A stretch of DNA of 64,000 nucleotides from Candidatus Woesearchaeota archaeon (GCA_018675975.1 JABGXB010000003.1:2181-66180), one strand, 5' to 3'. Shown: positions 33,464-48,833, numbered from the stretch's first letter. A program made the numbers and translations. The notes: a model not told the origin generated them from the letters alone.

Positions 33464-34174
33464 ATGGAATTTAAATTAAATAAAAAAATTATAAATCCTA
33501 TAATTATACAAGGATTTCCTGGATTTGGCTTAGTTGGGTCAGTTGCAACTGAATATTTAATTGAATTTTTAAAAGCAGAATATGTAGGTAGATTTTGTTC
33601 TGAAAAATTACCACCTGTAGCTGCGGTTCATAATAATTCAATTGTAATGCCACTTGGTATTTATTATTCAAAAAAATATAATTTATTAATAGTACATGGA
33701 GTTTCAGGTGTGCAAGGTCTGGAATGGGAAATTGCAAAAACTATAATTGATCTTTCAGTTAAAACAAAAGCAAAAGAAATAATTGCATTAGAATCTGTTG
33801 GTTCACAAGATTCAAAATCTAATACTATGTATTATTTTTCTAATGTAAAAACAAGTATTAAAAAATTTGAATCATTAAAATTGAGTAATTTAAAAGAAGG
33901 AGTAATAATGGGTGTGACTGGAACATTAATGGTAGAATCTAGAATGAAACCTAATTTTTCAGCTATCTTTGCTGAAACTCATACACAATTACCTGATTCA
34001 ATGGCTGCAAGTAAAGTTTTAGAAGTATTAAATAATTATTTAAAATTAAAAATGAATTTATCTAAATTAAAACAAGCAGCTCAAAAATTTGAAGATAAAT
34101 TAAAAGGTTTAATTTCAGCACAAGCACAAACATTCGAACAGTCAGATGAAAAACATTTATCTTATATGGGTTAA
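33464..34174 (+). CDS. PAC2-family (proteasome assembly chaperone 2-like, COG1938) protein
   Basis: The N-terminal IIQGFPGFGLVGSVATEYL is the signature strand-loop of PAC2/PbaA-type proteins. 236 aa. Confidence 0.7.
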   Translation: MEFKLNKKIINPIIIQGFPGFGLVGSVATEYLIEFLKAEYVGRFCSEKLPPVAAVHNNSIVMPLGIYYSKKYNLLIVHGVSGVQGLEWEIAKTIIDLSVKTKAKEIIALESVGSQDSKSNTMYYFSNVKTSIKKFESLKLSNLKEGVIMGVTGTLMVESRMKPNFSAIFAETHTQLPDSMAASKVLEVLNNYLKLKMNLSKLKQAAQKFEDKLKGLISAQAQTFEQSDEKHLSYMG

Positions 34175-34180
34175 TTATTA

Positions 34181-37100
34181 TTAAGCAGCTAATTGATATT
34201 CTTCATCAGGTTTTTCAGATAAATCATCTAATTTTCTTTTAGCATCAAATTTAATATATTCGGAATAGTCTAATTGTAATTGTTTAATTTCTGCAAATAA
34301 ATTTTCCCTTTTTGTACTTATACCATTAGTAAAATCTTTTATTTGTTCATATGATTTTGGTGTCGTTGATGTTTTTATTTCTTCAAGTGTCATTAATTGA
34401 GATTCTAAATGACTTTTGTATTCTTGTTTTGAATTAAATCCATTTTTTTTATAATCCTCTAACCATGCAATACTATGAATATCTCTCATATGGAATCGGT
34501 TTAATATTTCATCTTTTTCTTTTTCGGATTGTGCGCTTTTATATAATCCATATGCTTCTTCAAAATTATTATAAAAGAAAACAGATGGAACTTTTTCTCT
34601 TTGATATCTATTTACAAAATTTCCAAGTCCATCGGTATAATTTAAGTCAATATTACTCTCCATTGCACCGCTCTCTGAATCAATTCCAAATATTTTGGGT
34701 TTGGGTGCAGTTGTCGTTCCAATATCTACTTTTTCTCCATTAAAATAATGTAATTCATTATGATCAGTGTGAATGTGTCCTGCTAATTGAGTTATAGTTC
34801 CACCATTTTTAGTAAAGTCATCTTCAATTGAAGAATGACCCGCTGTACTCATCCAAGGTGATAATGGTCTGTCATAGAAATTTTCTAATAATTTCATTTT
34901 ATTCTTTTTACCAATTGTTGCTGGATTGTGAATTGCATGAACAAAGTGACCTTCTTTATCATGTTCACTAAATACACCTTCTAATCTTTTTCTATCTGGA
35001 TCAAAACCAGAATAACTTGCACCTAAATTATGTAATTCAAATAATGCCATTAATTTTTCTTGTCCCTCTAATGTTTCAAGTTTTTCAAATAGTTCTGGAT
35101 ATCTTTCATTTAGTAAATCAACTTTATCTGAATCCTGTTGTGGTGCAGCCATATGATTATTACCATCAATTGGAAGGCTAGTATTTATCCCAAAATTTCC
35201 ACCACCAACTATTTTTAATGATTTCCCATTTTTTTTTAAAATGTGAGCTGGAATTTTATCTAGATTAACTACATGAGATAAATATTGATCTACAATTGTT
35301 GAATCATGATTACCTAATGTCAATAAACTTTCAATTTGATATTCATTGAATACTTTTTTTGCAATTTCATTAAGTTTTTTTGCAATTAATGCTTGTTGAG
35401 AGTTTTGTTTAAATTTAATTAAATCTACCAAATTTAATTTACGTTCTTTTAAACCCTCATGATTTTCATTTATTTTTTCAATTTGATTATAATGAAATTC
35501 AAGTTCATTAATTTTTATTTCTAAAGCATCATATAATCCTTCAGTTTGTTCTGGGAATTTTTGTTTAATTTTTGCTAACTCAACATTTCTATAAGGTTGT
35601 TTAGGATTATTTTTTTCAAATAATACTCTTAATTTTTCATTAAATGTTTGTGAATAAAGTTTTTCATATTCACTTGGTTGGAAGTTTTTTTCTTTTGCAT
35701 CTTCAATTGATTTCATAATTTGTTTATGTTCTTTCAAATTAAATTTTCCAAATCCAAATTCATGTTGATAAATGGAATTAATTATTTGTTCTGATTCAAT
35801 ATATTTTTTATAATGATTAAATAATGATTTTGCATCTCCACTCATTAATTCTTTATTAACATAATTTTCTCCCATGATTGCAAATGTTTCATCCAATGTA
35901 TTTTTTACTAAATGATCTAATAATAATTTACCTTCTGTAAAATCCCCATTAAAAACAATTGCATCAATATTAACTCCATCTTTAATTGCTGGTTTTATTA
36001 TATCTTCAATTAATCCATCTAAAATATCAAATCTAATTTCTCTACTTGTTCGATTTACTTTTTTTGAACCATCCTTATATTCTCCAACAACTTCAAAATG
36101 TGATTCTTGATATAAGTGAATATCTGATAATTGTAATATATTAAAAGTATTTTCTGCTCTATGATCTACTCTTTCAGGTCTAATACCTTTTTTTACTGTA
36201 TCTTCAACATGATATTTTCTTAAATGAGTAGAACCATTATTTTTTAATTCTCTTTCAAAATCCCATATAACTTTATCCCAAATTGAATATTTATCATCTC
36301 TGTTTTTTAAGTCAACTAATGCTAATTGTAATTCAATATTAAATTTTTCATCAAAAGCTTTAGGATCTTTATTATACTCTTCTAACGTTTCTTCAAAACT
36401 TTTTCCATTTAAATGATATCTTGATAATTTATTTTTTAATTTTATTTTTTCTTTTTTTTCTTTATCTAAAGTTTTAAATAATTTATTATAGATAAAATCA
36501 ATTTTTGATGCTCTTTTAATTTCAGAATCTTCGTTTTCAATTTCATCTAATAATGAAATTAAATTTTTATCATCTACACCAATAATATTTCTTAAATCAT
36601 CTAATTTGTAAAAAGTTCCACTAATTAAATCATTAATTTTTTGTTTTTCTAAAAAATCAATTCGTGAATCACTAAGTGTATCTTCATCTAAGTTAATATT
36701 ACCTTCATATTGAACAAGTTTTTCAATATCATGTGGTTGTTGTCTAATATGAGATATAATGTATTTTAATTTTTCATTATCACTTTCTAGATTTGTATAA
36801 ATACTTTTTAATATATTTTCAAAACTTTTTTTATTAAGTTCACTAATTGAATCTTCAAATGTACTTCTTCCATATAATTCAATTATTAAATTTTTATATT
36901 TTATTTCTTTTGCCTTTTCACTATTAGTTTCAGATGATGGAAGTCTTTTTAATTGAGAATATGTTGTAATCATTGCACTTTCATAAGCATCTTTTAATGA
37001 CTGTTTTGGAACATAAGTTTCATTTTCAATAAGTTCTAATAATGACTTATTTTCTTCTATTATTTGATTATTAGCATATAATTGTTCTAAATGTATTCCT

Positions 37101-37858
37101 GGTGTTGTTTCAATATTTTCTTTTGTTATTTGTTCTAATTCTTTTTCTTTTTGTTCATTTAATTCTTTTTTAATTTGTTTTAATTTTTTATTTTTAACTT
37201 TATCAGTTGATTCAATTTCATTAGTCTCTGGATTAATTGATAAACCCTCATTAGAACCTTCTAATTCTTGATCTAATATTTTTATATAATCATTTTTGAA
37301 TTTATTTTCTATTTTTTTTTTATTTTCTTCAACTAAAAGATCAATAAAATCTCCATGATTATAAGTTCCTAATTTTTCTAAATAATCTGCATCAAGTTCA
37401 TTTTTTTGCATTTGAGAAACATTTTTGGTTTGTTCATATTCAATTTTTTCTCCTATTAATTGTGGATTAGTTTGACTTAATTGATTTTGATCTTCTGGAG
37501 ATAGTTGATCAAATAAATCTAAAATATTATATCTAAAGGGTTCTTGATTTGAACCTATTCTTTGTTCATTGTCAATTTTATGTCCTTCAATAAGTTCCTC
37601 TAGTTTAGAATTTCCAATTGGCTGATTAAAAGTTGAAATATCATAAGAATCCGAAAATGATTCTAATAGCTCTTTATTTGTTTTGTATGGTCTTTTAACA
37701 ATTTCATCTAATTCTTTTAATTCTTCTTCACTAAATTGTTTTTTTTGATTATTTTCAGTTTTTAAATTTCTTAATTTTTGAGTTTCTTCTTGGGTTAATT
37801 GCCCAGACTGTAGTCTAGTTAAAAAATCTTCATTATATAGCCAATCGTAATTTTCCAT
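34181..37858 (-). CDS. Giant (1225 aa) coiled-coil protein containing a split calcineurin-like metallophosphoesterase domain
   Basis: Motif I ILQLSDIHL, II VFNGDFTEG, III LTLGNHDS, V LAGHIHTDH. The first 550 aa or so, and a long insert between motifs II and III, are E/K/L/N-rich helical sequence. No signal peptide and no P-loop. Confidence 0.75.
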   Translation of the reverse strand: MENYDWLYNEDFLTRLQSGQLTQEETQKLRNLKTENNQKKQFSEEELKELDEIVKRPYKTNKELLESFSDSYDISTFNQPIGNSKLEELIEGHKIDNEQRIGSNQEPFRYNILDLFDQLSPEDQNQLSQTNPQLIGEKIEYEQTKNVSQMQKNELDADYLEKLGTYNHGDFIDLLVEENKKKIENKFKNDYIKILDQELEGSNEGLSINPETNEIESTDKVKNKKLKQIKKELNEQKEKELEQITKENIETTPGIHLEQLYANNQIIEENKSLLELIENETYVPKQSLKDAYESAMITTYSQLKRLPSSETNSEKAKEIKYKNLIIELYGRSTFEDSISELNKKSFENILKSIYTNLESDNEKLKYIISHIRQQPHDIEKLVQYEGNINLDEDTLSDSRIDFLEKQKINDLISGTFYKLDDLRNIIGVDDKNLISLLDEIENEDSEIKRASKIDFIYNKLFKTLDKEKKEKIKLKNKLSRYHLNGKSFEETLEEYNKDPKAFDEKFNIELQLALVDLKNRDDKYSIWDKVIWDFERELKNNGSTHLRKYHVEDTVKKGIRPERVDHRAENTFNILQLSDIHLYQESHFEVVGEYKDGSKKVNRTSREIRFDILDGLIEDIIKPAIKDGVNIDAIVFNGDFTEGKLLLDHLVKNTLDETFAIMGENYVNKELMSGDAKSLFNHYKKYIESEQIINSIYQHEFGFGKFNLKEHKQIMKSIEDAKEKNFQPSEYEKLYSQTFNEKLRVLFEKNNPKQPYRNVELAKIKQKFPEQTEGLYDALEIKINELEFHYNQIEKINENHEGLKERKLNLVDLIKFKQNSQQALIAKKLNEIAKKVFNEYQIESLLTLGNHDSTIVDQYLSHVVNLDKIPAHILKKNGKSLKIVGGGNFGINTSLPIDGNNHMAAPQQDSDKVDLLNERYPELFEKLETLEGQEKLMALFELHNLGASYSGFDPDRKRLEGVFSEHDKEGHFVHAIHNPATIGKKNKMKLLENFYDRPLSPWMSTAGHSSIEDDFTKNGGTITQLAGHIHTDHNELHYFNGEKVDIGTTTAPKPKIFGIDSESGAMESNIDLNYTDGLGNFVNRYQREKVPSVFFYNNFEEAYGLYKSAQSEKEKDEILNRFHMRDIHSIAWLEDYKKNGFNSKQEYKSHLESQLMTLEEIKTSTTPKSYEQIKDFTNGISTKRENLFAEIKQLQLDYSEYIKFDAKRKLDDLSEKPDEEYQLAA

Positions 37859-37979: not shown

Positions 37980-38108
37980 TTTTCAATTTTTTTCTTTTTA
38001 TATTTACAATAAAAATTTGTTTTATTGATGACAATGTCACAAATTAACGTGTTTAATAATATTCTTTGTTTATAAATTAATTTTCTCTTTTTTAATTAGT
38101 TGATATAA

Positions 38109-38576
38109 ATGTCATGTGGAAAAACAGTATACTCATTGATTGAACCAGCAAGCTATATCCCGAGACCCATGGGAATAGTTTACGGTCCAACTCATTCTGG
38201 ACCTTATAGAATTGCTAATCCTGGTGATTTTTCTGATATTGGTTCAACAGAGCCAGCAGGATTAAGATATAATTCTAATGAAACTAAGAAAATTGAAGAT
38301 ACTGATGATAAAAGAGAAACAATAAACAAAAGTACATTAAATTCATTTTTAGATAAATATAAATTACAAAATCAATTAGAAAAAAAAGATTATAAAAATA
38401 GTAATTATAAAAAATTAATAGATAATTTACCATATCAACTTGTAAAATCAGATAGTTTAGAAGGGAAAATAATAAATAATTTTTTATCTAAATTAGATAT
38501 TAATAAATTAAAAGAAACACAAGAATTAATTGCATTGGCAAAAATAGATGGAACTGTGGAGTATAAAACAATATGA
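38109..38576 (+). CDS. Hypothetical protein: Pro/Gly/aromatic-rich N-terminal 55 aa plus K/N-rich helical C-terminal half
   Basis: 155-aa ORF. Its stop overlaps the next start (ATGA at 38573-38576). Confidence 0.55.
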   Translation: MSCGKTVYSLIEPASYIPRPMGIVYGPTHSGPYRIANPGDFSDIGSTEPAGLRYNSNETKKIEDTDDKRETINKSTLNSFLDKYKLQNQLEKKDYKNSNYKKLIDNLPYQLVKSDSLEGKIINNFLSKLDINKLKETQELIALAKIDGTVEYKTI

Positions 38577-39667
38577 TATCAAAAGCACAAGAATTAGAAC
38601 AGGCAGCATTAAAAGAAAATAATCCTAATAAAAAATTAGAATTTTTATTATTAGCCTCAGAAATTTATTTAAAAGAAAGTAAAAATGATTCGGAAAATCA
38701 AAGTAAATATTTAGCAAAAGCAATTCAACTATATGATGAATATGAATCAATAAATGCAAATTCAATAAAATATTTAGATAAAGAAGTTAATAATAAAAAA
38801 GGAGTAAAAACATTTGATGATATTGGTGGACTTGAAGAATTAAAAGATGAAATTAAATTAAAAATAATTGAACCTTTATTACATCCTGAAGTATTTTCAG
38901 CTTATGGTAAAAAAATCGGTGGGGGAATTTTAATGTATGGACCACCTGGATGTGGGAAAAGTTTAATTGCTGAAGCTACAGCTGGGGAAGCAAATGCACA
39001 TTTTATACATGTTAAACCTAGTGATTTGAAAAGTAAATATGTGGGTGAAACTGAAAAAAATATTTCAAAATTATTTGAAGTTGCAAGAGCTAATGCACCG
39101 ACAATAATATTTTTTGATGAATTTGAATCATTTGGACGGGAAAGAAGTAAAACAGATGTACATACAAAAAATCATATAAGTCAATTACTTAGTGAAATGG
39201 ATGGAGTTGGAACTAAAGATAAAGCAATTTTATTATTAGCAGCAACAAATACACCATGGGAAATTGATCCTGCTTTAATTAGACACGGACGTTTTGGAAT
39301 TAATATTTTTGTAAAAGAACCAGATGAAAAAGCAAGAAAAGAAATAATAAAATTAAATTTAGAAAATAAACCAATTGACGATTCCGTAAATATTGATTTT
39401 TTAGCAAAAGTAACAAAAGGATTTAGTGGTGCTGACCTTAGTGAAATTTGTGATCGTGGTGCTGATATTGCCATAAAAGAATATTTTAAAACAAAAGTAA
39501 GTAGAAAAATAAATATTAAAGATTTCATAAGTATATTAAAAGAAAAAAAATCTATTGTTAAATCATGGTATAAACTTGCAAAAGAACAAATTGTTATAAA
39601 TGGATGTGAAGATTATTATACTGAAATAGCTAATTATCATGATGAAAAAAGCCACTCTTTTAATTAG
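38573..39667 (+). CDS. AAA+ ATPase, classic clade, single AAA module with an N-terminal MIT/TPR-like helical domain
   Basis: Walker A GPPGCGKS, Walker B IIFFDEFES, second region of homology LLLAATNTPWEIDPALIRHGRF. About 80 aa of helical N-terminus (AQELEQAALKEN...AKAIQLYDEY). Confidence 0.88.
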   Translation: MISKAQELEQAALKENNPNKKLEFLLLASEIYLKESKNDSENQSKYLAKAIQLYDEYESINANSIKYLDKEVNNKKGVKTFDDIGGLEELKDEIKLKIIEPLLHPEVFSAYGKKIGGGILMYGPPGCGKSLIAEATAGEANAHFIHVKPSDLKSKYVGETEKNISKLFEVARANAPTIIFFDEFESFGRERSKTDVHTKNHISQLLSEMDGVGTKDKAILLLAATNTPWEIDPALIRHGRFGINIFVKEPDEKARKEIIKLNLENKPIDDSVNIDFLAKVTKGFSGADLSEICDRGADIAIKEYFKTKVSRKINIKDFISILKEKKSIVKSWYKLAKEQIVINGCEDYYTEIANYHDEKSHSFN

Positions 39668-40634
39668 TTCTGTATGTAATCACAAATGTGATTTTTGTCT
39701 AAATATATGGCATAATAGTAATATTAATGAAACTTTTGAAACTTTTATGTCATTTGAAAAAATAAAAGAATCTATTGATAAATTATCTAATGCAAATATT
39801 ACTAATATTACTATTTGTGGAGGAGAGCCATTATTACATCCTGATTTTAATAAAATAATTGATTATATATATAATAAAAAATTAAATATTAGATTACAAA
39901 CAAATGGTGTTTTTTTAAATAAAGAGAAAATAGATTTTTTTAAAAATAAAATAAGTGAAATTGAAATTAGTTTACATGGTACAAAAGAAATACATAATGA
40001 AATCTCCCATTCAAATTCTTTTGAAAAAATAATAAAAAATGTTAATGATATAATAAAAAATAATATTTTACTAACTACAAACTTTGTGATAAATAAAAAT
40101 AATTTTATGGATATAGAAAATTATATTTATTTATTAAATAAATTAAATGTCAAGGCTGGATATTTTACCATATTGTATAAAGCTGGACTTGCAAATAGAA
40201 ATAATTTAGAATTAACTAAACAACAATTATCAGAGTTTATTGGAAAAATAAATGATTATTCTCTTATTTCAAAAACTAAATTAATATTTCAAGGATGTTA
40301 TCCTCCTTGTGAATTAAATGTAAAAAATATTGAATTTATTTCCCCTTGTGGTGCAGGTAAAGATGAAATTGCGATTCAACCAAATGGTACAATTACATTA
40401 TGTCCAGCTCACCCTAAAGCAATTACTAATATTTTTACAATAAATCAAACTAAATTTAATAAATTAATTAATAATACACAATCTTATTTGTTAAACGAAA
40501 GTTTACCAAAAAAAGAATGTAACTCTTGTTCATTATTAAAAGCATGTCGTGGTGGTTGTGTAATTAATCGTCAAGGTGGAACTGAAAATATATTAAAAGA
40601 AAAAAATAATTTATTTAAATTAATTAATTATTAA
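39639..40634 (+). CDS. Radical SAM enzyme with a C-terminal SPASM domain (peptide/protein-modifying maturase type)
   Basis: CNHKCDFC (CX3CX2C) at the N-terminus. C-terminal CGAGKDEIAIQPNGTITLCP and CNSCSLLKACRGGC (CX2CX5CX3C). Overlaps the AAA gene by 29 nt. Confidence 0.85.
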   Translation: MMKKATLLISSVCNHKCDFCLNIWHNSNINETFETFMSFEKIKESIDKLSNANITNITICGGEPLLHPDFNKIIDYIYNKKLNIRLQTNGVFLNKEKIDFFKNKISEIEISLHGTKEIHNEISHSNSFEKIIKNVNDIIKNNILLTTNFVINKNNFMDIENYIYLLNKLNVKAGYFTILYKAGLANRNNLELTKQQLSEFIGKINDYSLISKTKLIFQGCYPPCELNVKNIEFISPCGAGKDEIAIQPNGTITLCPAHPKAITNIFTINQTKFNKLINNTQSYLLNESLPKKECNSCSLLKACRGGCVINRQGGTENILKEKNNLFKLINY

Positions 40635-40753: not shown

Positions 40754-41674
40754 TCATTCTTTTGATTCAATATATTTTTGTGCTTCTAAAGCTGCTTGAC
40801 ACCCAGTTCCAGCCGCCGTTATTGCTTGTTTATATTTTGGATCCTGAACGTCACCAGCAGCCCAAATCCCTTTAACATTTGTTGATAAATCTCTATTAGT
40901 TTTTACAAAACCATGTTCATCTAAATCAACTAAGCCTTCAACAAATTTAGTATTTGGAACATGACCTATTGCTAAAAACACACCATGAACATCAATATTG
41001 GAAGTTTCATTATTTTGATTATTAATTAATTTTACACCAGTAACTCCAGTATTATCTCCTAATATTTCTTCTATTTTACTATTATATAGAATATTTATAT
41101 TATTTATTTTTTCTACTCTCTCCCTCATAATATGACTTGCTCTCATTTTATCTTTTCTTACAATAATATTTACTTTATTACATAATTTAGATAAATAATG
41201 TGCTTCTTCACAAGCTGAATCTCCGCCACCAACTATAATAACATCTTTACCTTTGTAAAAAAAACCATCACAAGTTGCACATGTACTTACACCTTTTCCT
41301 TTAAATTCTTTTTCTGATTCAATATTTAACCATCTTGCTGATGCACCTGAACTAATGATAATTGCAATTGTTTCAATTAAATCTCCATTAGCTAAATGAA
41401 CTTTAAAATGATTATCTTCTTTTTCTACTTTTACAACATTATCTGTAATAAATCTAGTTCCAAATTTTTCTGCTTGTGCTCTACAATTGTTTACAAATTC
41501 ATTCCCATCAATTCCTTGTGGAAATCCAGGAATATTTTCAACTATTGTTGTAAGTGTTAATTGACCACCTTTTTCTAATCCATCTACAATAATTGGATTT
41601 AATTTTGCTCTTGCTGCATAAATTCCGGCTGTATATCCTGAAATTCCTGATCCTATAATAACTAATTCTTCCAT
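40754..41674 (-). CDS. trxB: Thioredoxin-disulfide reductase
   Basis: FAD site GSGISGYTAG, redox-active CATCDG, NADPH site VGGGDSACEEA. 306 aa. Confidence 0.9.
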   Translation of the reverse strand: MEELVIIGSGISGYTAGIYAARAKLNPIIVDGLEKGGQLTLTTIVENIPGFPQGIDGNEFVNNCRAQAEKFGTRFITDNVVKVEKEDNHFKVHLANGDLIETIAIIISSGASARWLNIESEKEFKGKGVSTCATCDGFFYKGKDVIIVGGGDSACEEAHYLSKLCNKVNIIVRKDKMRASHIMRERVEKINNINILYNSKIEEILGDNTGVTGVKLINNQNNETSNIDVHGVFLAIGHVPNTKFVEGLVDLDEHGFVKTNRDLSTNVKGIWAAGDVQDPKYKQAITAAGTGCQAALEAQKYIESKE

Positions 41675-41845: not shown

Positions 41846-44800
41846 ATGAATTCATTTGAAAAGTCAATATATGTAGTAATAATGTTAATTGTAATTTCTA
41901 CTATTTGTTTTTCTTTATTCATTATACTCAATCATAATTCAAATTTAAATAAAATATTAAAGACTAATAATTTAAAACAAAATGATAATCTTGAAAATGT
42001 CAAGGAATTATTAAATATTTCAATTGATAATAATTTTTCTAATTTAATTAATAGTGCAAATCAAAGATTTAGTAATATTAAACAAGAAAGAGAATTAATT
42101 GATAAGAAAATAAAAGAAATTGAATTAAATAAATCAAAACGATTAGAATTAATTAAAAAAATACGTTTAGAATCTAAAATTAGAGATGAAGTAAAAAGAC
42201 AAACAAAAGAAAAAGAAAAAATTAATATTATAATTGATTTAGATAATGAAAATGAAAAAGATAATTTAATTGAAAAATTAAATGAACAAAATATTCAAAT
42301 TAATAATGATTTAGGAAATGCAATTGCAGTTACAATTGATTCAAATAAAATTAATAATATATCAGAGAATGACCAAATTAAAAATATTCATTTAGATAGA
42401 GAATATAGTATATTAAGTTTTGAACAATTTGATAAATTTAATATTTCTAATATAAGAGAAAGTAATAATATATCTGGTGACAATATTAAAGTTGCAATTA
42501 TTGATACAGGTATTGATGAAAGTGTTTTTAACAATATTATTTCAAAATCTTTTGTTAGTAATAATGTAAATGATAATATTGGTCATGGTACTCAAATTGC
42601 AAGTATAATAAAAAATATTGCACCTGATTCTATTTTATACAATGCAAAAGTTGTAACTGATAATGGTTTAACTTCAACATCTTCAATTATTCAAGGTATA
42701 AAATGGGCAATCAATAATTCTGTAGATATTATTTCATTAAGCTTAGGTTCAAAATTTCATGAAACGGATCAATTATTAAATGAAGAGTTACAAAATGCAA
42801 TTGATAATGATATAATAGTGGTTGTGGCATCAGGAAATTGTGGTCCTTGTTCAAATGTGTGTGGTGATTTTAAGGGTGTTACAAATCCAGCTGATTATGA
42901 ATCAGTTATTTCAGTTGGTGCGGTTGATATAAATAATAATTATGCGTGTTTTTCATCAGGACAAGAATATGAAAATTATATTAAACCAGATTTAACTGCA
43001 TTAGGTGTTAATATAAATGTAACTTCAATTAATAATAAAAATAAAATAGTTAATGGAACTTCTTTTTCAGCTCCAATGATTAGTGGTTTAATTGCATTAA
43101 AATTAGAACAAGAAGAATTAAATCATAATCAAATAAAACGTTTATTAGAATATAATGCAATTGATTTAGGACAATCAGGTAAAGATATTGAATATGGTTC
43201 TGGTGTTATTGATATAGATAAATTATTCAAAATTAATAGTGTAATAATTGATCCTATTATTATTGATGATAATGATACAAGTAATGAAAGTAATATTGAA
43301 TCAAATGAAATTAAGATTAACGATATAATAATTAATACAAATGACAAATTAATTTTAAATGATATTGGTGAATTTAAATTTAATAATGCTGAAGATGATT
43401 ATGTAGTTTATGATAATAATGGAAATACAGCAATAGTTGAAATAAGAGAGTTTAATTCAAGCGAGGATTTGATAAAATATTTAAAATTAGGTTTTAATTT
43501 TACAATTGACGATTATGAAAATGAAACTATTGATTCATTTAATTATTATGACAATATTTTATGGTTTAAAAACAGTAGTGTATATATATTAAGTAAACCA
43601 ATTAACTCAAAAGCTAATTTAACAATTATAAGAGATGAATATATAAAAAAAATAGGTTCTGATATTCAAAATTTAATTCAAAATAATAATAATAATAATA
43701 AACCAAACAGAAATTATGAATTATCATCTACGCCTGATTATGATGGTGAAATTAATATCGGTGATACACGTTATGTTTCTTTAAACGGTGGAAGTACATT
43801 TAAATATAAATTAACAACTAATTATAATGGCATTATTCTATTTTCACTTACAGATGTAGGCCGTTATGAAGATTTTGATATAACTTTACTTGACTATGAA
43901 GATGAATTTATGCAGGAAAGTAATGCAGGTAGTGGTGAAGATGAATTAATAATTCAAAATAAAGAAACTGATGATGTTTGGGATCTTTATATAGTAGTTA
44001 GTAATTTTAAAGATGATCCAGGAGATGTTACATTTAAGGTTTCTACCGGATGTACACCATCAAGTTCTTATTCTTGTAGTGGAAATATAGTATATAAAAA
44101 AACTATTGATGGATCTTGTGAAGAAGATAATGATATATTTCTAAATTGTAATTATGAAAAAAAGATTAGTTATGGTGATTTGTATTGTTCAAATAATGAT
44201 GTACATCAAACAAAATCTTATACAACTGGTGAATGTAAAGTAACTTCATCTAATGGATATTGTAAAGATGTTGATAAAACAACAAATAGAAAAGTAGAAG
44301 ATTGTGGAAGTGGAACTTGTAGTAATGGTGCTTGTTACGAATGTCAAAACAATAATGATTGTAGTAGTGGGGAATATTGTGATAATAGTAATAAATGTCA
44401 AACTTATGAATATGGTCATAAAAAAAATCCAATTATTTTTGATTGGAAAGCAAGTCGTTCAGTTAATCTTGAAAGTGGAAATGTGGAATGGTATAAAACA
44501 TCAACTCCTAATGGCGGAAAATTAATTTTTTCAATATATAGTGTTCAAGGTGATGAAAATTTTGGCTTATCTGTTTATGACGAAAATGGAAATAATTTAT
44601 TAGGCTCAAATTCTACTGGAAAAGGAAAAGATCAACATGTAAATATAATAAAACCAAATACAAATTTAGAAACTTTTATGATTAAAGTTGAATCTTATAC
44701 TGGAAGATCTGTTAGCTTAACAGCTGGTGATATAAAATGTGAAGAAAAAGATTTAACATATTGTGATTCTTATAGTAATAAAGTTTATTTAGAAACAATT

Positions 44801-46756
44801 AATCCTCTTTGTGGCAGTAATGTTCAATTAGTTTTTGATTGTAATAATGAATTTGACATAATTGAAGATGGAAAAGAATATTATTGTGGTATTGATAATA
44901 ATTTAGATGTAATATTTTCAAAAGATTATTATCAAGAAGGTTATTGTACTAATTCAGATTTGAGTCAATGTTTTTATGAAAAAAAATATAGACCTGTAAT
45001 AGAATCCGTTAAAGGAGGTCAAAAATATTGTACATTAGCAGAGGGATTATGTACTTGTAAAGAAAATGAGGGAATTTGTAAGGAGAATAGTCAATGTGAA
45101 GGTAATCTAGAATGTGAATCTGGAAATTGTAAATCTAATTGTATTGATAGTGACAATGATGGTCATTATTCAAATTGTAGTCCAATAGATTGTGACGATA
45201 ATGATCCTGAAAGAAATGCAGGTCTTGCTGAAGTATGTGATGGGAAAGATAATAATTGTAATGGAAATGTGGATGAAACTTTTGATTTAATTTCTGATCC
45301 TAATAATTGTGGTGGATGTAATATTAAATGTACAGATCAACAAGTTTGTTCAAATTCACAATGTAAAAATAATTATGAGTGTGGTGATGGTGTTTGTACT
45401 ATTGATGTTGAAACATCAAGTACATGTAGTCAAGATTGTTATGCTGATTTTAAAGTATTGAATATTAAAAATGTAAATCCGAGTATTGCAACAGAAAATT
45501 CTCAAGTTAGTATAACAGCTGAAGTTATTAATAATGGAACTTATTATGGATCAAGTTTTATTGAAGCAGGTATTAGTCCGAGATCATGGAATAGTTATTT
45601 TTTAAATTCATTTAATCTATTTAGTTATGAATTACAAAGTTATATTGATAATCCTAATCCTGTTTGTCCTAATAATGATTATTATGATTCAAAAGCAGTT
45701 GAACTTGATTCAAAAGAAACTGAAGAGATTACTTTTAATTTAATTTCACAAACAAAACAAAGTGTCGATAGTTGTGATATTAATAGTAGATCTGCTTGGA
45801 GTGATACTTTTGATATTGTAGTTGGTTTTTATGAAAATTTAAATGGTGGGGCATATACACATTTTAAATTAGAAGAAAATTATAATATTGATGAATGTTC
45901 ATTTCCATATGGAAATTCTGAATATTGTTCATGTGAAAATAATAAATTTTCTTGCGGAGATGGTTATACATGTAATCAAGGAACTTGTGAACTTTGTACA
46001 AATCCAGATGGATCAAGTTCAGATTGTTCTTGTAGAGTTGATAATGATTGTCAAGAAGGATACGAATGTGATACAAGTAGTAGATATGGTGTTTGTAATG
46101 AAATTGATGTAGTAAATGAATGTGCTGTAAAAGATAATTATGAATGTAAAAATGGTGATGTTTATTTATGTGAAGATACTCCATATGGACGGAAATTAAA
46201 AATATCAGATTATTGTGTTGATAGAGAATTATGTCCAATAAATGTTGCAGAAGTAAATAGATGTATTACAAATGATGATTATAATTTAATAATTGAATAT
46301 GCATCTTCAGGAGTAAAAGTATTTAAACAATATAGAGATATCTTAACAATTAGACTAAATCTTAAGGAAAATGTTGGATATGAGTTAGAATATGATGATT
46401 CTGTTTTTGAATCATTAACTTCTGATTGTACAAATAATAATTTTAAAATAGGTCTGAATATTTGTAAATTTGAAATAGTAGGTTTTGGTGATCATGTATT
46501 TAAATATGGACAAGATATAGAACCAATTGAAATTATTCTTAATCCTACAAATATTTATGTAACTAATATAAAAAAATTACATCAAAGATATGATGATCAA
46601 GAAAGTGTTGCTGTATTACTTGAAAAAACATATCAACAAGCAAATTTAAACAATGGTATTGTATATGATCTTGAAGATTATATAATAGATGTACCTCATA
46701 CATTTAATTATAATTTTTTAAATTATAATGAGCCTTTAGCATGTGTATTAGAATAA
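41846..46756 (+). CDS. Giant membrane-anchored subtilisin-like (S8) serine protease with duplicated PPC-like and Cys-rich modules, a MopE-like metal-binding motif and a CARDB-like domain
   Basis: N-terminal TM IYVVIMLIVISTICFSLFIIL. Catalytic triad AIIDTGID / HGTQIASII / GTSFSAPMISG. Two PPC-like domains, each followed by a many-cysteine module. CIDSDNDGHYSNCSPIDCDDNDPERNAGLAEVCDGKDNNCNGNVDE. CARDB-like segment ADFKVLNIKNVNPS...VSITAEVINNG. Confidence 0.85.
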   Translation: MNSFEKSIYVVIMLIVISTICFSLFIILNHNSNLNKILKTNNLKQNDNLENVKELLNISIDNNFSNLINSANQRFSNIKQERELIDKKIKEIELNKSKRLELIKKIRLESKIRDEVKRQTKEKEKINIIIDLDNENEKDNLIEKLNEQNIQINNDLGNAIAVTIDSNKINNISENDQIKNIHLDREYSILSFEQFDKFNISNIRESNNISGDNIKVAIIDTGIDESVFNNIISKSFVSNNVNDNIGHGTQIASIIKNIAPDSILYNAKVVTDNGLTSTSSIIQGIKWAINNSVDIISLSLGSKFHETDQLLNEELQNAIDNDIIVVVASGNCGPCSNVCGDFKGVTNPADYESVISVGAVDINNNYACFSSGQEYENYIKPDLTALGVNINVTSINNKNKIVNGTSFSAPMISGLIALKLEQEELNHNQIKRLLEYNAIDLGQSGKDIEYGSGVIDIDKLFKINSVIIDPIIIDDNDTSNESNIESNEIKINDIIINTNDKLILNDIGEFKFNNAEDDYVVYDNNGNTAIVEIREFNSSEDLIKYLKLGFNFTIDDYENETIDSFNYYDNILWFKNSSVYILSKPINSKANLTIIRDEYIKKIGSDIQNLIQNNNNNNKPNRNYELSSTPDYDGEINIGDTRYVSLNGGSTFKYKLTTNYNGIILFSLTDVGRYEDFDITLLDYEDEFMQESNAGSGEDELIIQNKETDDVWDLYIVVSNFKDDPGDVTFKVSTGCTPSSSYSCSGNIVYKKTIDGSCEEDNDIFLNCNYEKKISYGDLYCSNNDVHQTKSYTTGECKVTSSNGYCKDVDKTTNRKVEDCGSGTCSNGACYECQNNNDCSSGEYCDNSNKCQTYEYGHKKNPIIFDWKASRSVNLESGNVEWYKTSTPNGGKLIFSIYSVQGDENFGLSVYDENGNNLLGSNSTGKGKDQHVNIIKPNTNLETFMIKVESYTGRSVSLTAGDIKCEEKDLTYCDSYSNKVYLETINPLCGSNVQLVFDCNNEFDIIEDGKEYYCGIDNNLDVIFSKDYYQEGYCTNSDLSQCFYEKKYRPVIESVKGGQKYCTLAEGLCTCKENEGICKENSQCEGNLECESGNCKSNCIDSDNDGHYSNCSPIDCDDNDPERNAGLAEVCDGKDNNCNGNVDETFDLISDPNNCGGCNIKCTDQQVCSNSQCKNNYECGDGVCTIDVETSSTCSQDCYADFKVLNIKNVNPSIATENSQVSITAEVINNGTYYGSSFIEAGISPRSWNSYFLNSFNLFSYELQSYIDNPNPVCPNNDYYDSKAVELDSKETEEITFNLISQTKQSVDSCDINSRSAWSDTFDIVVGFYENLNGGAYTHFKLEENYNIDECSFPYGNSEYCSCENNKFSCGDGYTCNQGTCELCTNPDGSSSDCSCRVDNDCQEGYECDTSSRYGVCNEIDVVNECAVKDNYECKNGDVYLCEDTPYGRKLKISDYCVDRELCPINVAEVNRCITNDDYNLIIEYASSGVKVFKQYRDILTIRLNLKENVGYELEYDDSVFESLTSDCTNNNFKIGLNICKFEIVGFGDHVFKYGQDIEPIEIILNPTNIYVTNIKKLHQRYDDQESVAVLLEKTYQQANLNNGIVYDLEDYIIDVPHTFNYNFLNYNEPLACVLE

Positions 46757-46757
46757 A

Positions 46758-48833
46758 ATGGTAACTAAAAAAACAAATAAAATATTTAGTATTATATTAT
46801 TAGTTTTAATAGCATTAGTTCCATTTACAACAGCAGTAAATGTATGTCAGAATTTTAATAATGATTATGCTATTGCAGCTTCAAGTTTTGTAAAAGAAAA
46901 ATGTTATGATTGTCAAAATGTAATTATTATAGGAGATGATTATGTTGTTCCAAGTTATAGAAGAAATTTATTATTTGCAAATAATCCATTAACTAGTCAA
47001 ACATCTAATTATATTAGTGATACAATAATTACAGATTCTTCATATATTCCTAGAACAACAAAATTATTTTCTGAATTTGATAATATGTTTAAACTTGATA
47101 ATAAATATCAAGGAAAAGATGTGGTAATAATTTTACCTAATAGAGATGATGCACAAAAATTTGAATTTGATGTTAATGAAACAAAAAAAGTATTAGAAGT
47201 AGAGGGTTACAAACCAAATTTTAAACAAGATATTTATGGAACTCATGTAACTTGTGATAGAAGTTCATTTTATGGTAGACAATTAGTGGATAAAACTTTA
47301 ATTATAATTGGAACTGAAGAAACAAATAATGCTTTAAAATGTTATAATTTATTTTCAACCGATGATACAACTGATTCAATTTTAATGGAAAAAAACCAAT
47401 GGGATTTGGAGGAAGACGCTTTTATAATTTATACTGATGATGTAGATTTATTAAAAAGTGCAAATAATTTAATTGCTGATAAAGAAATTAAAAAATTAAA
47501 AGGATACAGTGCTTATGTAATAAAAGTAACTTCTCAAGTAGTTTCAAATGTTGCATTTACTATAGCTCTTGCAGCATTTATGGCATCTGGTGCTGGACTT
47601 GTAACCGTAGCGGTTGCAGGAACTATTACAGCTGTTGCCAGTACTGTTGATGCAATTGATGATGGAACACAAGTTGTTAATGATTGTTTTGTAAATAAAG
47701 ATGGTATTGGGAATTGTGCATTTTCAATAAGTTTAATTTTTTTACCAGGGATAATAGATGAAGGTGCAAAAGGAATTAAAAGAGCTTTAGGGCCTGAATT
47801 TTCAACAAGATTTACAAAATATGTTGGAACATTAAGTTCAAGGGCAATTAGAAATGCAGAATTTTTAAGAGATGAATATTTTCCTAAAGATGTTTTTAAA
47901 AAAATATATTTTTATGGGACAGAAGATTTTATCAAAGGATTAGAAAATATATTTGGTGATACCCTATTAGACATTGATAGATTTACTAGGAAAGTAAGAG
48001 TTTCTAATAAATTAAATCCTGAATTAATTTCTCTTCATCAAAAAGTTACACAATCTAGGTTCATAGTATTAGCTGGAAGATTAAACCAAAATATAGTTAG
48101 GCAATTTTTAAGTGAATTTAGTATGAGTTTTATTGAAAAAATAAAATTTACAAGATATTGGGACATCGTTGAATTTTATTGGGCAAATGTAAAAGCAAGT
48201 ATTACATTTAATGATCTTAAAAAAAATCAACTACTAACACTAATAAAGAATTATAAATATTCGAGAATAAAAAATAGTGAACCTGATAAAATAATGGGTA
48301 ATTTTGGAGAAAGTATTGTTAATTTTCATGCGAATCAAAGAGGTTTATCAAATATATTAGACGGTAAAAAATTAGATTATAATAAAAATCCCTATAAGGA
48401 TAATATGGATCATATATTTTATGATTCTAAAAATAAACAATATGTAATTGTAGAAACTAAATATTCATCTACTCCAGATAGAAAAATTATTGAATTAAAA
48501 GATAAAAATTTAGGTGTTGATAAAGAAGGTAATTTTCAATTATCAAATAATTGGATTGATTTTAATATAAAAAAAATGAAGGATTCTGGTATACCTGAAT
48601 ATGAACAAGTTGCTGATATATTAGAAAAAAATAAAAATAATATTAGAAAAGAATATTATTTAGTACATGGAAATAAAAAAATATCAGGAAATACATTTAA
48701 TGATGATTTAGTTAAAAAAAATCTAGATACTACAATTTCTGGAAAACATTATACAAAAGATCAAACACCAGGTGTTGATAGAGTAAATATAATTGAATTA
48801 GGATATGAGGTATTTGAAAATGATATTAAATAA
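46758..48833 (+). CDS. Exported protein with a central hydrophobic hairpin and a C-terminal NERD / PD-(D/E)xK nuclease-like domain
   Basis: Signal peptide MVTKKTNKIFSIILLVLIALVPFTTA. Hydrophobic segments VAFTIALAAFMASGAGLVTVAVAGTITAVA and CAFSISLIFLPGII. C-terminal GNFGESIVNF...MDHIFYD...YVIVETKYS (G-x-x-GE ... D ... E-x-K). The start is 1 nt after the S8 gene stop. Confidence 0.7.
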   Translation: MVTKKTNKIFSIILLVLIALVPFTTAVNVCQNFNNDYAIAASSFVKEKCYDCQNVIIIGDDYVVPSYRRNLLFANNPLTSQTSNYISDTIITDSSYIPRTTKLFSEFDNMFKLDNKYQGKDVVIILPNRDDAQKFEFDVNETKKVLEVEGYKPNFKQDIYGTHVTCDRSSFYGRQLVDKTLIIIGTEETNNALKCYNLFSTDDTTDSILMEKNQWDLEEDAFIIYTDDVDLLKSANNLIADKEIKKLKGYSAYVIKVTSQVVSNVAFTIALAAFMASGAGLVTVAVAGTITAVASTVDAIDDGTQVVNDCFVNKDGIGNCAFSISLIFLPGIIDEGAKGIKRALGPEFSTRFTKYVGTLSSRAIRNAEFLRDEYFPKDVFKKIYFYGTEDFIKGLENIFGDTLLDIDRFTRKVRVSNKLNPELISLHQKVTQSRFIVLAGRLNQNIVRQFLSEFSMSFIEKIKFTRYWDIVEFYWANVKASITFNDLKKNQLLTLIKNYKYSRIKNSEPDKIMGNFGESIVNFHANQRGLSNILDGKKLDYNKNPYKDNMDHIFYDSKNKQYVIVETKYSSTPDRKIIELKDKNLGVDKEGNFQLSNNWIDFNIKKMKDSGIPEYEQVADILEKNKNNIRKEYYLVHGNKKISGNTFNDDLVKKNLDTTISGKHYTKDQTPGVDRVNIIELGYEVFENDIK

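Follow-up and report, generated by a model that had tools for sequence, protein, structure and literature searches.

A conserved pair of a low-complexity protein and an MIT-type AAA ATPase, joined in one class by a radical SAM gene, in Woesearchaeota-type archaea

Three co-directional open reading frames (ORFs) occupy positions 38109 to 40634 of a 64,000-nucleotide (nt) stretch of DNA from a Candidatus Woesearchaeota archaeon (GCA_018675975.1 JABGXB010000003.1:2181-66180), which is termed the window throughout. They lie on the + strand in DNA of ~24% GC and encode a 155-aa protein (gene 1), a 364-aa single-module AAA ATPase (gene 2) and a 331-aa radical S-adenosylmethionine (SAM) enzyme (gene 3) (Table 1). 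A first-pass annotation, made from the sequence alone, had described these genes as translationally coupled, and the boundaries it gave were reproduced exactly: the stop codon of gene 1 overlaps the start codon of gene 2 within an ATGA at 38573-38576, and genes 2 and 3 overlap by 29 nt (39639-39667). The three genes form one operon of a DPANN (Woesearchaeota-type) archaeon. Analysis of related loci demonstrated that the translationally coupled pair of a low-complexity protein and an MIT-type AAA ATPase is conserved and that one class of these loci has, in addition, a coupled radical SAM gene.

For this comparison, 29 loci of the AAA family were gathered and subjected to ORF and hidden Markov model analyses with custom scripts. 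A scan with exact 8-mer patterns taken from the single AAA protein returned only unrelated halobacterial and alphaproteobacterial AAA genes, and a family alignment was used instead. Alignment scans of genomes and metagenomes for the radical SAM enzyme were swamped by generic GGEPL and QTNG patterns and produced no close relative; about 160 of the loci were kept as negative controls. The gene order of the window, with abutting or overlapping genes, was found to recur in divergent relatives, so that it is unlikely to be a chance arrangement. A radical SAM gene of the window type abuts or overlaps the AAA gene (by 4 to 29 nt in those cases with a clear start) in eight loci, namely, the window, the P0123/P0002 contigs, L001, L089, L102, L109, L256 and, as a remnant, L104. 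The AAA proteins of the trio loci have only ~50% identity to the window protein (66% for P0123), and the radical SAM enzymes have 29 to 58% identity (58% at the P0123/P0002 contigs). The L256 enzyme, which was left out when a model of the clade was built, scored 233 bits on that model, compared to 185 bits for the best unrelated radical SAM enzyme, and a scan with the signature CGAGKxEIAxxPNG matched the L102 contig only. No AAA of the window type was present near the radical SAM genes of the ~160 unrelated SPASM radical SAM loci.

The first-pass annotation had proposed that the three genes may constitute an unfoldase-assisted protein modification system. The trio does recur, with small-protein, AAA and radical SAM genes together in at least seven further loci, but the conserved unit proved to be the small protein and the AAA, with the radical SAM gene added in one branch. 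This gene was restricted to loci whose upstream protein begins with M-S-C (7 of 9 evaluable loci versus 0 of 18 others), and ~20 of the 27 evaluable loci had no adjacent radical SAM gene. As most of the AAA family lacks this gene, the system is better read as an MIT-AAA and its client with an added modifier than as a maturase that has recruited an unfoldase. The radical SAM enzyme appears to be a class-specific, often lost accessory, with the unfoldase and its client as the core. In a neighbor-joining (NJ) tree of the AAA proteins, the radical-SAM-linked lineages were basal and paraphyletic, while the class whose upstream proteins begin with M-V-C formed a derived clade without the radical SAM gene and with an additional MIT-only protein, gained either as a separate polypeptide or as a fusion. 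This pattern suggests, tentatively as the tree carries no support values, that the trio is ancestral and that the radical SAM gene was lost repeatedly.

Gene 1 encodes a protein with an abundance of P, G and Y in its N-terminal half and a K/L/N-rich C-terminal half that is, on a reading of its sequence, probably helical; the protein as a whole is fast-evolving, of low complexity and probably largely disordered. It had no match in Pfam, NCBIfam or PADLOC, and only the protein itself was recovered both by an indexed search of 5.8 billion clusters and by an exhaustive phmmer search over 1.84 billion representatives. An M-x-C protein of 110 to 380 aa, rich in Y, Q, S, P and N, is nevertheless encoded upstream of the AAA gene in 28 of the 29 loci, L107 being the sole exception. 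This gene is mostly adjacent to and overlapping with the AAA gene; a gene for an MIT-only protein sometimes lies between the two, and a single 347-aa ORF of unknown type does so in L001. The N termini fall into the classes MSC, MVCxPHxY, MCC, MGC and MTC. The background level of Cys3 was low, with none among 111 flanking ORFs of at least 100 aa located away from the module and 1 among 54 ORFs of the window, that one being the 155-aa gene. At the other end of these proteins, right alignment of the tails of 27 family members revealed a C-terminal motif across all of the classes, represented by LEQLIATAK, LEELIAQEK, LLEDLIAKEK and LEKLIENAR in other M-S-C proteins and by LIEQELAQL in M-V-C proteins. 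The amphipathic moment of the tail was within the top 10% of windows in 74% of the small proteins. As the proteins encoded at the same place in 27 other loci also have Cys3 and the C-terminal motif, the apparently orphan 155-aa protein is a member of a conserved positional family, and the place directly upstream of the AAA gene, Cys3 and the C-terminal helix motif are the only three conserved features of gene 1. The earlier suggestion that the 155-aa product is a substrate of the radical SAM enzyme gains only indirect support, from the invariance of Cys3 and from the coincidence of the M-S-C class with the presence of the radical SAM gene.

Other interpretations of the N terminus were considered and rejected. 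A sulfatase-like CxPxR reading of MVCSPH[RQ]Y failed as Arg is found in only 2 of 12 proteins and as the M-V-C class has no radical SAM gene. An N-terminal Zn-ribbon was discarded on account of the single Cys of the window protein.

The product of gene 2 matched the Pfam AAA family (PF00004) with 133 bits, and the AAA lid was also matched. Its catalytic and translocation motifs are intact and are invariant across the family alignment, and from the Walker, pore-loop and arginine-finger motifs the protein is predicted to be a hexamer-type AAA translocase. An AlphaFold2 model based on 25 homologues had a pLDDT of 88.9 and N-terminal helices at residues 2-14, 18-38 and 43-71, while the N-domain modeled alone formed a three-helix bundle with a pLDDT of 96.8. 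The best PDB matches of this domain in Foldseek were the MIT domains of VPS4B/SKD1, VPS4A, VPS4B-IST1, calpain-7, MITD1 and Sulfolobus CdvC, with TM scores of 0.84 to 0.85, root mean square deviations of 1.5 to 1.7 Å and E-values that reached just 0.17 to 3 because the domain is so small. The single AAA module and the helical, MIT-like N-domain of the first-pass annotation were, therefore, both borne out. A sequence profile of the N-domain weakly matched the MIT domains of chitin synthase (E=4e-4) and calpain-7 (E=0.026); Pfam MIT was matched in 6 of 25 members, and some members had MIT, TPR or SNAP matches. The nearest relatives beyond the Woesearchaeota were TPR-AAA proteins of Planctomycetota, Verrucomicrobiota and Chloroflexota and 5xTPR-AAA proteins of Micrarchaeota, with 41 to 48% identity over approximately residues 55-355. 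The MIT-fold matches and the TPR-bearing relatives together indicated that the N-domain is a minimal MIT/TPR-type peptide-binding module carried by a classic translocase.

The TPR-AAA and 5xTPR-AAA proteins resemble the window protein in the ATPase module, including its C-terminal helices, and in having a helical-repeat peptide-binding domain in the same N-terminal place, but they carry three to five canonical TPRs rather than a single three-helix bundle and have no radical SAM gene nearby. We know of no characterized function for these relatives either. The family of the window AAA itself consists of proteins of ~350 to 390 aa with ~50% mutual identity and is annotated almost only from Woesearchaeota and Nanoarchaeota. 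The window protein scored 546 bits on the family model, a value taken via L002, which is from the same genome, and the same sequence is present in NCBI assembly GCA_018667555.1 and on a 1.03-Mb JGI contig.

Assignment of the AAA to a named family was examined with NCBIfam, and the protein fell under every family cutoff: FtsH, 214 against 600 bits; PAN, 212.5 against 500; Cdc48, 210.9 against 802; and CdvC, 180.5 against 650. It was closest in sequence and fold to the D2 module of p97/Cdc48, and its matches to solved structures were to D2-type regions only, but it has one module rather than the two tandem AAA modules with a double-psi-barrel N-domain of Cdc48, p97 and VAT. Features of PAN are missing, as there is no HbYX, the C terminus being ...EKSHSFN and the C termini of the family not being conserved, and as the N-domain is a three-helix bundle and not a coiled coil plus an OB domain; HbYX docking to a proteasome was accordingly discarded. 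The earlier supposition that this AAA is not an orthologue of CdvC/Vps4 or PAN was upheld by these scores; less in keeping with the three-gene proposal, the family is widespread and mostly found without a radical SAM gene.

The same data bear on whether the module performs ESCRT-like remodeling, with the small protein as a polymer-forming or membrane-associated scaffold analogous to ESCRT-III, its N-terminal Cys as an anchor or metal site, the MIT-AAA as a Vps4-like disassembly motor acting in division, vesicle formation or host contact, and the radical SAM enzyme only tuning the scaffold. Like Vps4/CdvC, the window AAA combines an MIT three-helix N-domain with one AAA module and has a presumed client gene directly upstream, which is also the reported place of the ESCRT-III (CdvB) gene relative to Vps4 in most archaeal ESCRT systems (PMC10936438). 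C-terminal helices are present on ESCRT-III clients and also on the small proteins and on the extra MIT-only proteins, and the module appears to be lineage-wide and single-copy. Set against these similarities, the upstream proteins have no Snf7/ESCRT-III, PspA or any other Pfam match and look like low-complexity proteins rather than helical hairpins, Vps4_C (PF09336) is absent from the Pfam hits of the ATPase, and its CdvC score (180 bits) is not only under the CdvC cutoff but below the scores for PAN, FtsH and Cdc48 (~211 to 215 bits). Reviews of archaeal ESCRT and Vps4 mention neither DPANN members nor this module (PMC8970359, PMC10936438). Remodeling of an ESCRT-III analogue is, on balance, a rather unlikely account of the module.

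Gene 3 matched Radical_SAM (PF04055) with 80.6 bits against a cutoff of 29.5, and GGEP is present at residues 61-64. The CX3CX2C site CNHKCDFC and the two auxiliary motifs quoted in the first-pass annotation were found in the protein, but the "full SPASM signature" claimed there was slightly overstated as the trailing Cys of the seven-Cys motif is missing, and the SPASM model (PF13186) scored 19.7 bits against a gathering score of 21.5. Among the AAA-linked relatives, the CGAGKDEIAIQPNGTITLCP-type motif is the sole auxiliary motif kept in all, while the CNSCSLLKACRGGC-type motif is present in the window, P0002 and P0004; L109 has a degenerate version, and L089, L102 and L256 have none. Comparison with named SPASM maturases (MftC, PqqE, SCIFF, PapB, DynA and others) was by NCBIfam equivalog cutoffs, and all 25 listed families were far under cutoff. 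The best was MftC (90.5 against 265 bits), followed at some distance from their cutoffs by anSME (TIGR03942; 84.8 against 349) and PapB (77 against 340), in agreement with the three-gene proposal, which presupposed that the enzyme does not belong to a housekeeping family. Close relatives are very rare, as only three proteins with >30% identity were found among the 5.8 billion clusters. The solved structures closest to a profile of the AAA-linked enzymes were CteB (E=1e-23), SkfB, anSME (E=5e-19) and PqqE; for the top three, CteB, SkfB and anSME, the target is in each case a Cys of a peptide or protein. The profile aligned from its position 3-4 with residue 99 of CteB and residue 110 of SkfB, indicating that there is no N-terminal RiPP recognition element (RRE; RiPP, ribosomally synthesized and posttranslationally modified peptide). 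The enzyme thus begins at the catalytic core, like anSME, and Pfam detected no PqqD-like domain in the operon proteins.

Among characterized enzymes, anSME/AtsB (PDB 4K37) is similar in being a compact radical SAM protein with a SPASM-type auxiliary region, without an RRE and with CX3CX2C within the first 20 residues, and its target is a Cys or Ser in a protein that has to be unfolded. It differs in that the window neighborhood contains no sulfatase gene and the 155-aa protein no CxPxR, and in that the window enzyme lacks the last SPASM Cys and some of its relatives lack the second auxiliary motif. The thioether-forming sactipeptide and ranthipeptide maturases CteB (5WGG), SkfB (6EFN) and PapB likewise target Cys-bearing substrates whose genes are close by, and the auxiliary domain of SkfB is of the twitch-only kind, as it is in the enzymes of L089, L102 and L256. 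In contrast to the window enzyme, CteB and SkfB have an N-terminal RRE and short peptide substrates accompanied by proteases or exporters, whereas the candidate substrate in the window is 155 aa long and the partner is an AAA.

This kinship raised the question of whether the locus is a RiPP pathway in which the small protein is a precursor, its Cys-bearing N-terminal core is cross-linked by the radical SAM enzyme and the AAA takes the place of an RRE in leader recognition or export. Several M-S-C proteins have a further Cys near Cys3 (MSCGIC, MSCNGAC and MSCGGSALVGESCGCG), the enzyme is closest to sactipeptide/SCIFF and anSME-type enzymes, and radical SAM/SPASM peptide-processing modules attached to AAA+ proteins have been predicted in bacteria (PMC7159879). 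Such a precursor would be large, at 110 to 380 aa, with its conserved recognition element at the C terminus and its Cys at residue 3; protease, exporter and immunity genes are absent from the window operon and the related loci, and ~20 loci retain the small protein and the AAA without any radical SAM gene. A RiPP pathway was, therefore, considered quite improbable.

Table 1. Positions of the operon genes, their domains and motifs, and an upstream promoter-like element in the window
Feature	Position	Strand	Basis or detail
TTTATAAA, TATA-box-like element	38069..38076	+	Sequence reading; 33-40 nt before first ATG
Gene 1, 155-aa protein, presumed client/substrate	38109..38576	+	ORF call
Cys3 codon, only Cys of the 155-aa protein, in N-terminal M-S-C motif; candidate modification site	38115..38117	+	Sequence
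TQELIALAK, residues 137-145, conserved C-terminal helix motif (hydrophobic-I-x-x-A/E-K/L), presumed docking site for AAA N-domain	38517..38543	+	Tail alignment
Gene 2, single-module AAA ATPase, 364 aa	38573..39667	+	Pfam AAA, AAA_lid_3
MIT/TPR-like three-helix N-domain, residues 1-64	38573..38764	+	AlphaFold2, Foldseek
Walker A GPPGCGKS	38939-38962	+	Sequence
Pore loop KYVG	39035-39046	+	Sequence
Walker B IIFFDE	39104-39121	+	Sequence
Sensor-1 ATN	39242-39250	+	Sequence
Arginine fingers RHGRF	39281-39295	+	Sequence
Gene 3, 331-aa radical SAM enzyme, SPASM-type auxiliary domain, no RRE	39639..40634	+	Pfam
CNHKCDFC, residues 13-20, CX3CX2C [4Fe-4S] site	39675..39698	+	Invariant among AAA-linked radical SAM enzymes
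CGAGKDEIAIQPNGTITLCP, residues 237-256, first (twitch-like) auxiliary-cluster motif	40347..40406	+	C237-X12-G-X4-C255
CNSCSLLKACRGGC, residues 294-307, second auxiliary-cluster motif CX2CX5CX3C	40518..40559	+	C294X2C297X5C303X3C307

The overall picture that we favor, with a probability of about 0.5, is that the N-domain of the AAA docks the C-terminal helix of the client, the ATPase threads the client and the radical SAM enzyme modifies it near Cys3. Its parts are not equally secure: the AAA and the small protein probably work together, while for modification of the small protein by the radical SAM enzyme the chances are about even. In this scheme, the MIT/TPR-like N-domain would bind the C-terminal helix of the gene 1 protein, and the AAA hexamer would thread, unfold or disassemble that protein through its KYVG pore loops. 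Docking and threading are proposed by analogy with the binding of MIT-interacting motifs by MIT domains in Vps4/ESCRT-III, with the binding of C-terminal peptides by TPR domains and with Pup/Mpa. In the last of these, the partners are encoded by neighboring genes, and a small, intrinsically disordered protein becomes helical where it binds the N-domain of a classic AAA unfoldase, which threads it starting at the free end. Pup/Mpa/ARC has no sequence relationship to the window module and serves as an analogy only; the module has no PafA ligase or proteasome gene, its docking element is C-terminal, and an MIT fold stands where the Pup system has a coiled coil. The radical SAM enzyme, translationally coupled to the ATPase gene, would then modify the gene 1 protein posttranslationally, most likely on Cys3 itself or close to it; a thioether cross-link and Cys oxidation are examples of the chemistry envisaged. 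The proposal draws on the solved enzymes closest to that of gene 3, on its lack of an RRE, on the invariance of Cys3 and on the confinement of the radical SAM gene to M-S-C loci. It may also be speculated that an unfoldase beside an RRE-less radical SAM enzyme makes sense if the substrate needs to be presented unfolded, as for anSME.

Several observations weigh against this picture. Because most family members have no radical SAM gene, the pair of small protein and AAA works without the enzyme, and the gene is truncated, degenerate or interrupted by an insertion sequence (IS) in several lineages; it could be dispensable or only loosely connected to the pair. The restriction of the radical SAM gene to M-S-C loci gave a P value of 4e-5 in a Fisher test, but this test ignores phylogenetic nonindependence, as the M-V-C loci belong to a single clade. 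The AAA-linked enzymes were not shown to be monophyletic, as the NJ tree of the radical SAM enzymes was star-like, and P0003, a protein with 34% identity and a score in the range of the clade, follows another SPASM radical SAM gene and not an AAA gene on a 1.1-kb contig. For the small proteins, an all-against-all search detected homology inside the M-V-C class but none between classes; as the classes cannot be aligned, homology rests on position and two short motifs. The tail of the window protein itself shows only moderate amphipathicity; its moment of 0.32 does not rank in the top 10% for that protein.

The losses of the radical SAM gene also invite the reading that this enzyme has a different substrate, either a cofactor or an unlinked protein, that the operon serves coexpression only and that the small protein and AAA are an independent proteostasis module, perhaps a proteasome-related adaptor. 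Repeated loss or degradation of the gene while the pair stays intact would fit, as would the PAC2-family gene that lies no more than ~4 kb from the module at four loci, which represent two separate AAA clades. The AAA and radical SAM genes, however, abut or overlap in eight loci despite the extent of divergence of their AAA proteins from that of the window, the radical SAM gene is limited to one class of small protein, the AAA C terminus has no HbYX and the module includes neither a ligase nor a proteasome gene. A separate substrate was, therefore, judged unlikely.

A role in defense, with the AAA+ protein as sensor or effector and a radical-SAM-modified peptide effector, was also weighed. In favor are the very fast evolution of the small protein, an IS insertion at one locus and a precedent: radical SAM/SPASM peptide-processing modules, in which a SPASM radical SAM enzyme is associated with an AAA+ ATPase and with a small peptide encoded by a standalone gene, have been predicted in vWA-MoxR and FtsH ternary conflict systems (Kaur, Burroughs, Iyer, Aravind, eLife 2020; PMC7159879). 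Those systems have AAA+ proteins of other clades and vWA and effector partners and are bacterial and associated with multicellularity; the window module has no such partners, and no other defense genes and no vWA or MoxR genes accompany it. PADLOC yielded generic similarity only (IetA, 123 bits, compared to 375 bits for p97; TRIP13; and the viperin-like pVip, 76 bits) and nothing for the small protein. The AAA tree is clade-wise and looks vertical, and the neighbors are conserved housekeeping genes. An antivirus or conflict system was, consequently, regarded as very unlikely.

Individual loci showed further variation. In L104 (7034-7634), a radical SAM remnant of ~65 aa that retains CNIACEFCLNVW is followed by a transposase-like ORF, indicative of recent inactivation by an insertion element. 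The full trio of MSC protein, AAA and radical SAM enzyme is present at 57% GC in L102 (identical to L252; DATILO010000096.1), which is labeled Candidatus Binatia bacterium. An ORF resembling an archaeal-type ATP-dependent DNA ligase lies on the same contig, which is probably a misbinned archaeal contig or otherwise a case of horizontal transfer. The most divergent of the trio loci is L001 (3564-6860 and 9204-10547), in which another ORF of unknown type, of 371 aa, precedes the gene for the MSC protein, the 347-aa ORF between this gene and that of the AAA is Y/S-rich, and an MJ0043_C-domain protein is encoded directly after the radical SAM gene. Within the M-V-C clade, a protein of ~100 aa consisting of an MIT-like domain only is encoded between the small-protein and AAA genes of L091, L092, L095, L098, L100, L101 and L105; it starts with MC[NSD]..[DE]A and has a His-rich C-terminal helix of its own (...HHH.DLL.EI..LL). 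This domain is fused to the AAA in L094 and L106, resulting in two MIT domains. The genes of this clade are joined by ATGTG overlaps (L088, 920-930; L091, 5649-5656; and similar cases) in which the upstream protein ends ...HV* and the next one starts MC. As the MC start is kept without an overlap in L099, P0137 and P0194, it may itself be functional.

The operon is preceded by an AT-rich spacer of 250 nt that contains the TATA-box-like element TTTATAAA, which may be the archaeal promoter of a short-leader transcript; the evidence is weak as such AT-rich words are common at ~24% GC. Divergent from the operon is a gene for a 1,225-aa K/E/N-rich protein (34181-37858, −), whose sole match was a borderline one to calcineurin-like phosphoesterases (21.9 bits) and for which no homologue was found in the other loci searched. 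Beyond it lies the PAC2-family gene (proteasome assembly chaperone type; 33464-34174, +; Pfam, 120.7 bits), with counterparts in L091 (3906-4715), L095 (2064-2873) and L098 (800-1657). Downstream, the operon is ended by a convergent gene for a thioredoxin-reductase-like flavoprotein (40754-41674, −), a homologue of which is located near the module in L107 (1839-2753); this flavoprotein is conceivable as a redox partner for the Fe-S enzyme. Three very large successive ORFs of 1,636, 691 and 997 aa follow at 41846-51798 (+); the first encodes an S8 peptidase along with MopE-like repeats rich in Cys, a combination typical of DPANN surface proteins. ARAGORN found no tRNA genes in the whole 64-kb window.

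A literature search returned no description of a module of small protein, MIT-AAA and radical SAM enzyme, consistent with the first-pass annotation not having recognized it as a described system, and the system appears to be real, conserved and undescribed while built from known parts. The 155-aa orphan now has a place in a recognizable family, with a concrete partner and a role as a candidate substrate; position and terminal motifs revealed this family where sequence searches over billions of proteins had missed it. If the radical SAM enzyme does modify a 110- to 340-aa client of an AAA unfoldase, the scope of SPASM and twitch enzymes would exceed short RiPP peptides and sulfatases, and this would be the first radical SAM modification of a full-length protein to be integrated with an AAA translocase. 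The N-domain would, in addition, represent MIT-mediated substrate selection in a prokaryote outside ESCRT. As DPANN genomes are tiny, a module that is kept across an order-level DPANN lineage is likely to matter biologically. A wider interpretation, put forward as a possibility that we consider doubtful at present, is that Woesearchaeota-type DPANN archaea have a lineage-wide, undescribed Vps4-like machine whose client is a fast-evolving disordered protein with an N-terminal Cys and a C-terminal docking helix and is, in what is probably the ancestral form, covalently modified by a dedicated unfoldase-coupled SPASM radical SAM enzyme; such a machine could provide these episymbionts with a scaffold system for their cell biology that is not based on ESCRT-III.

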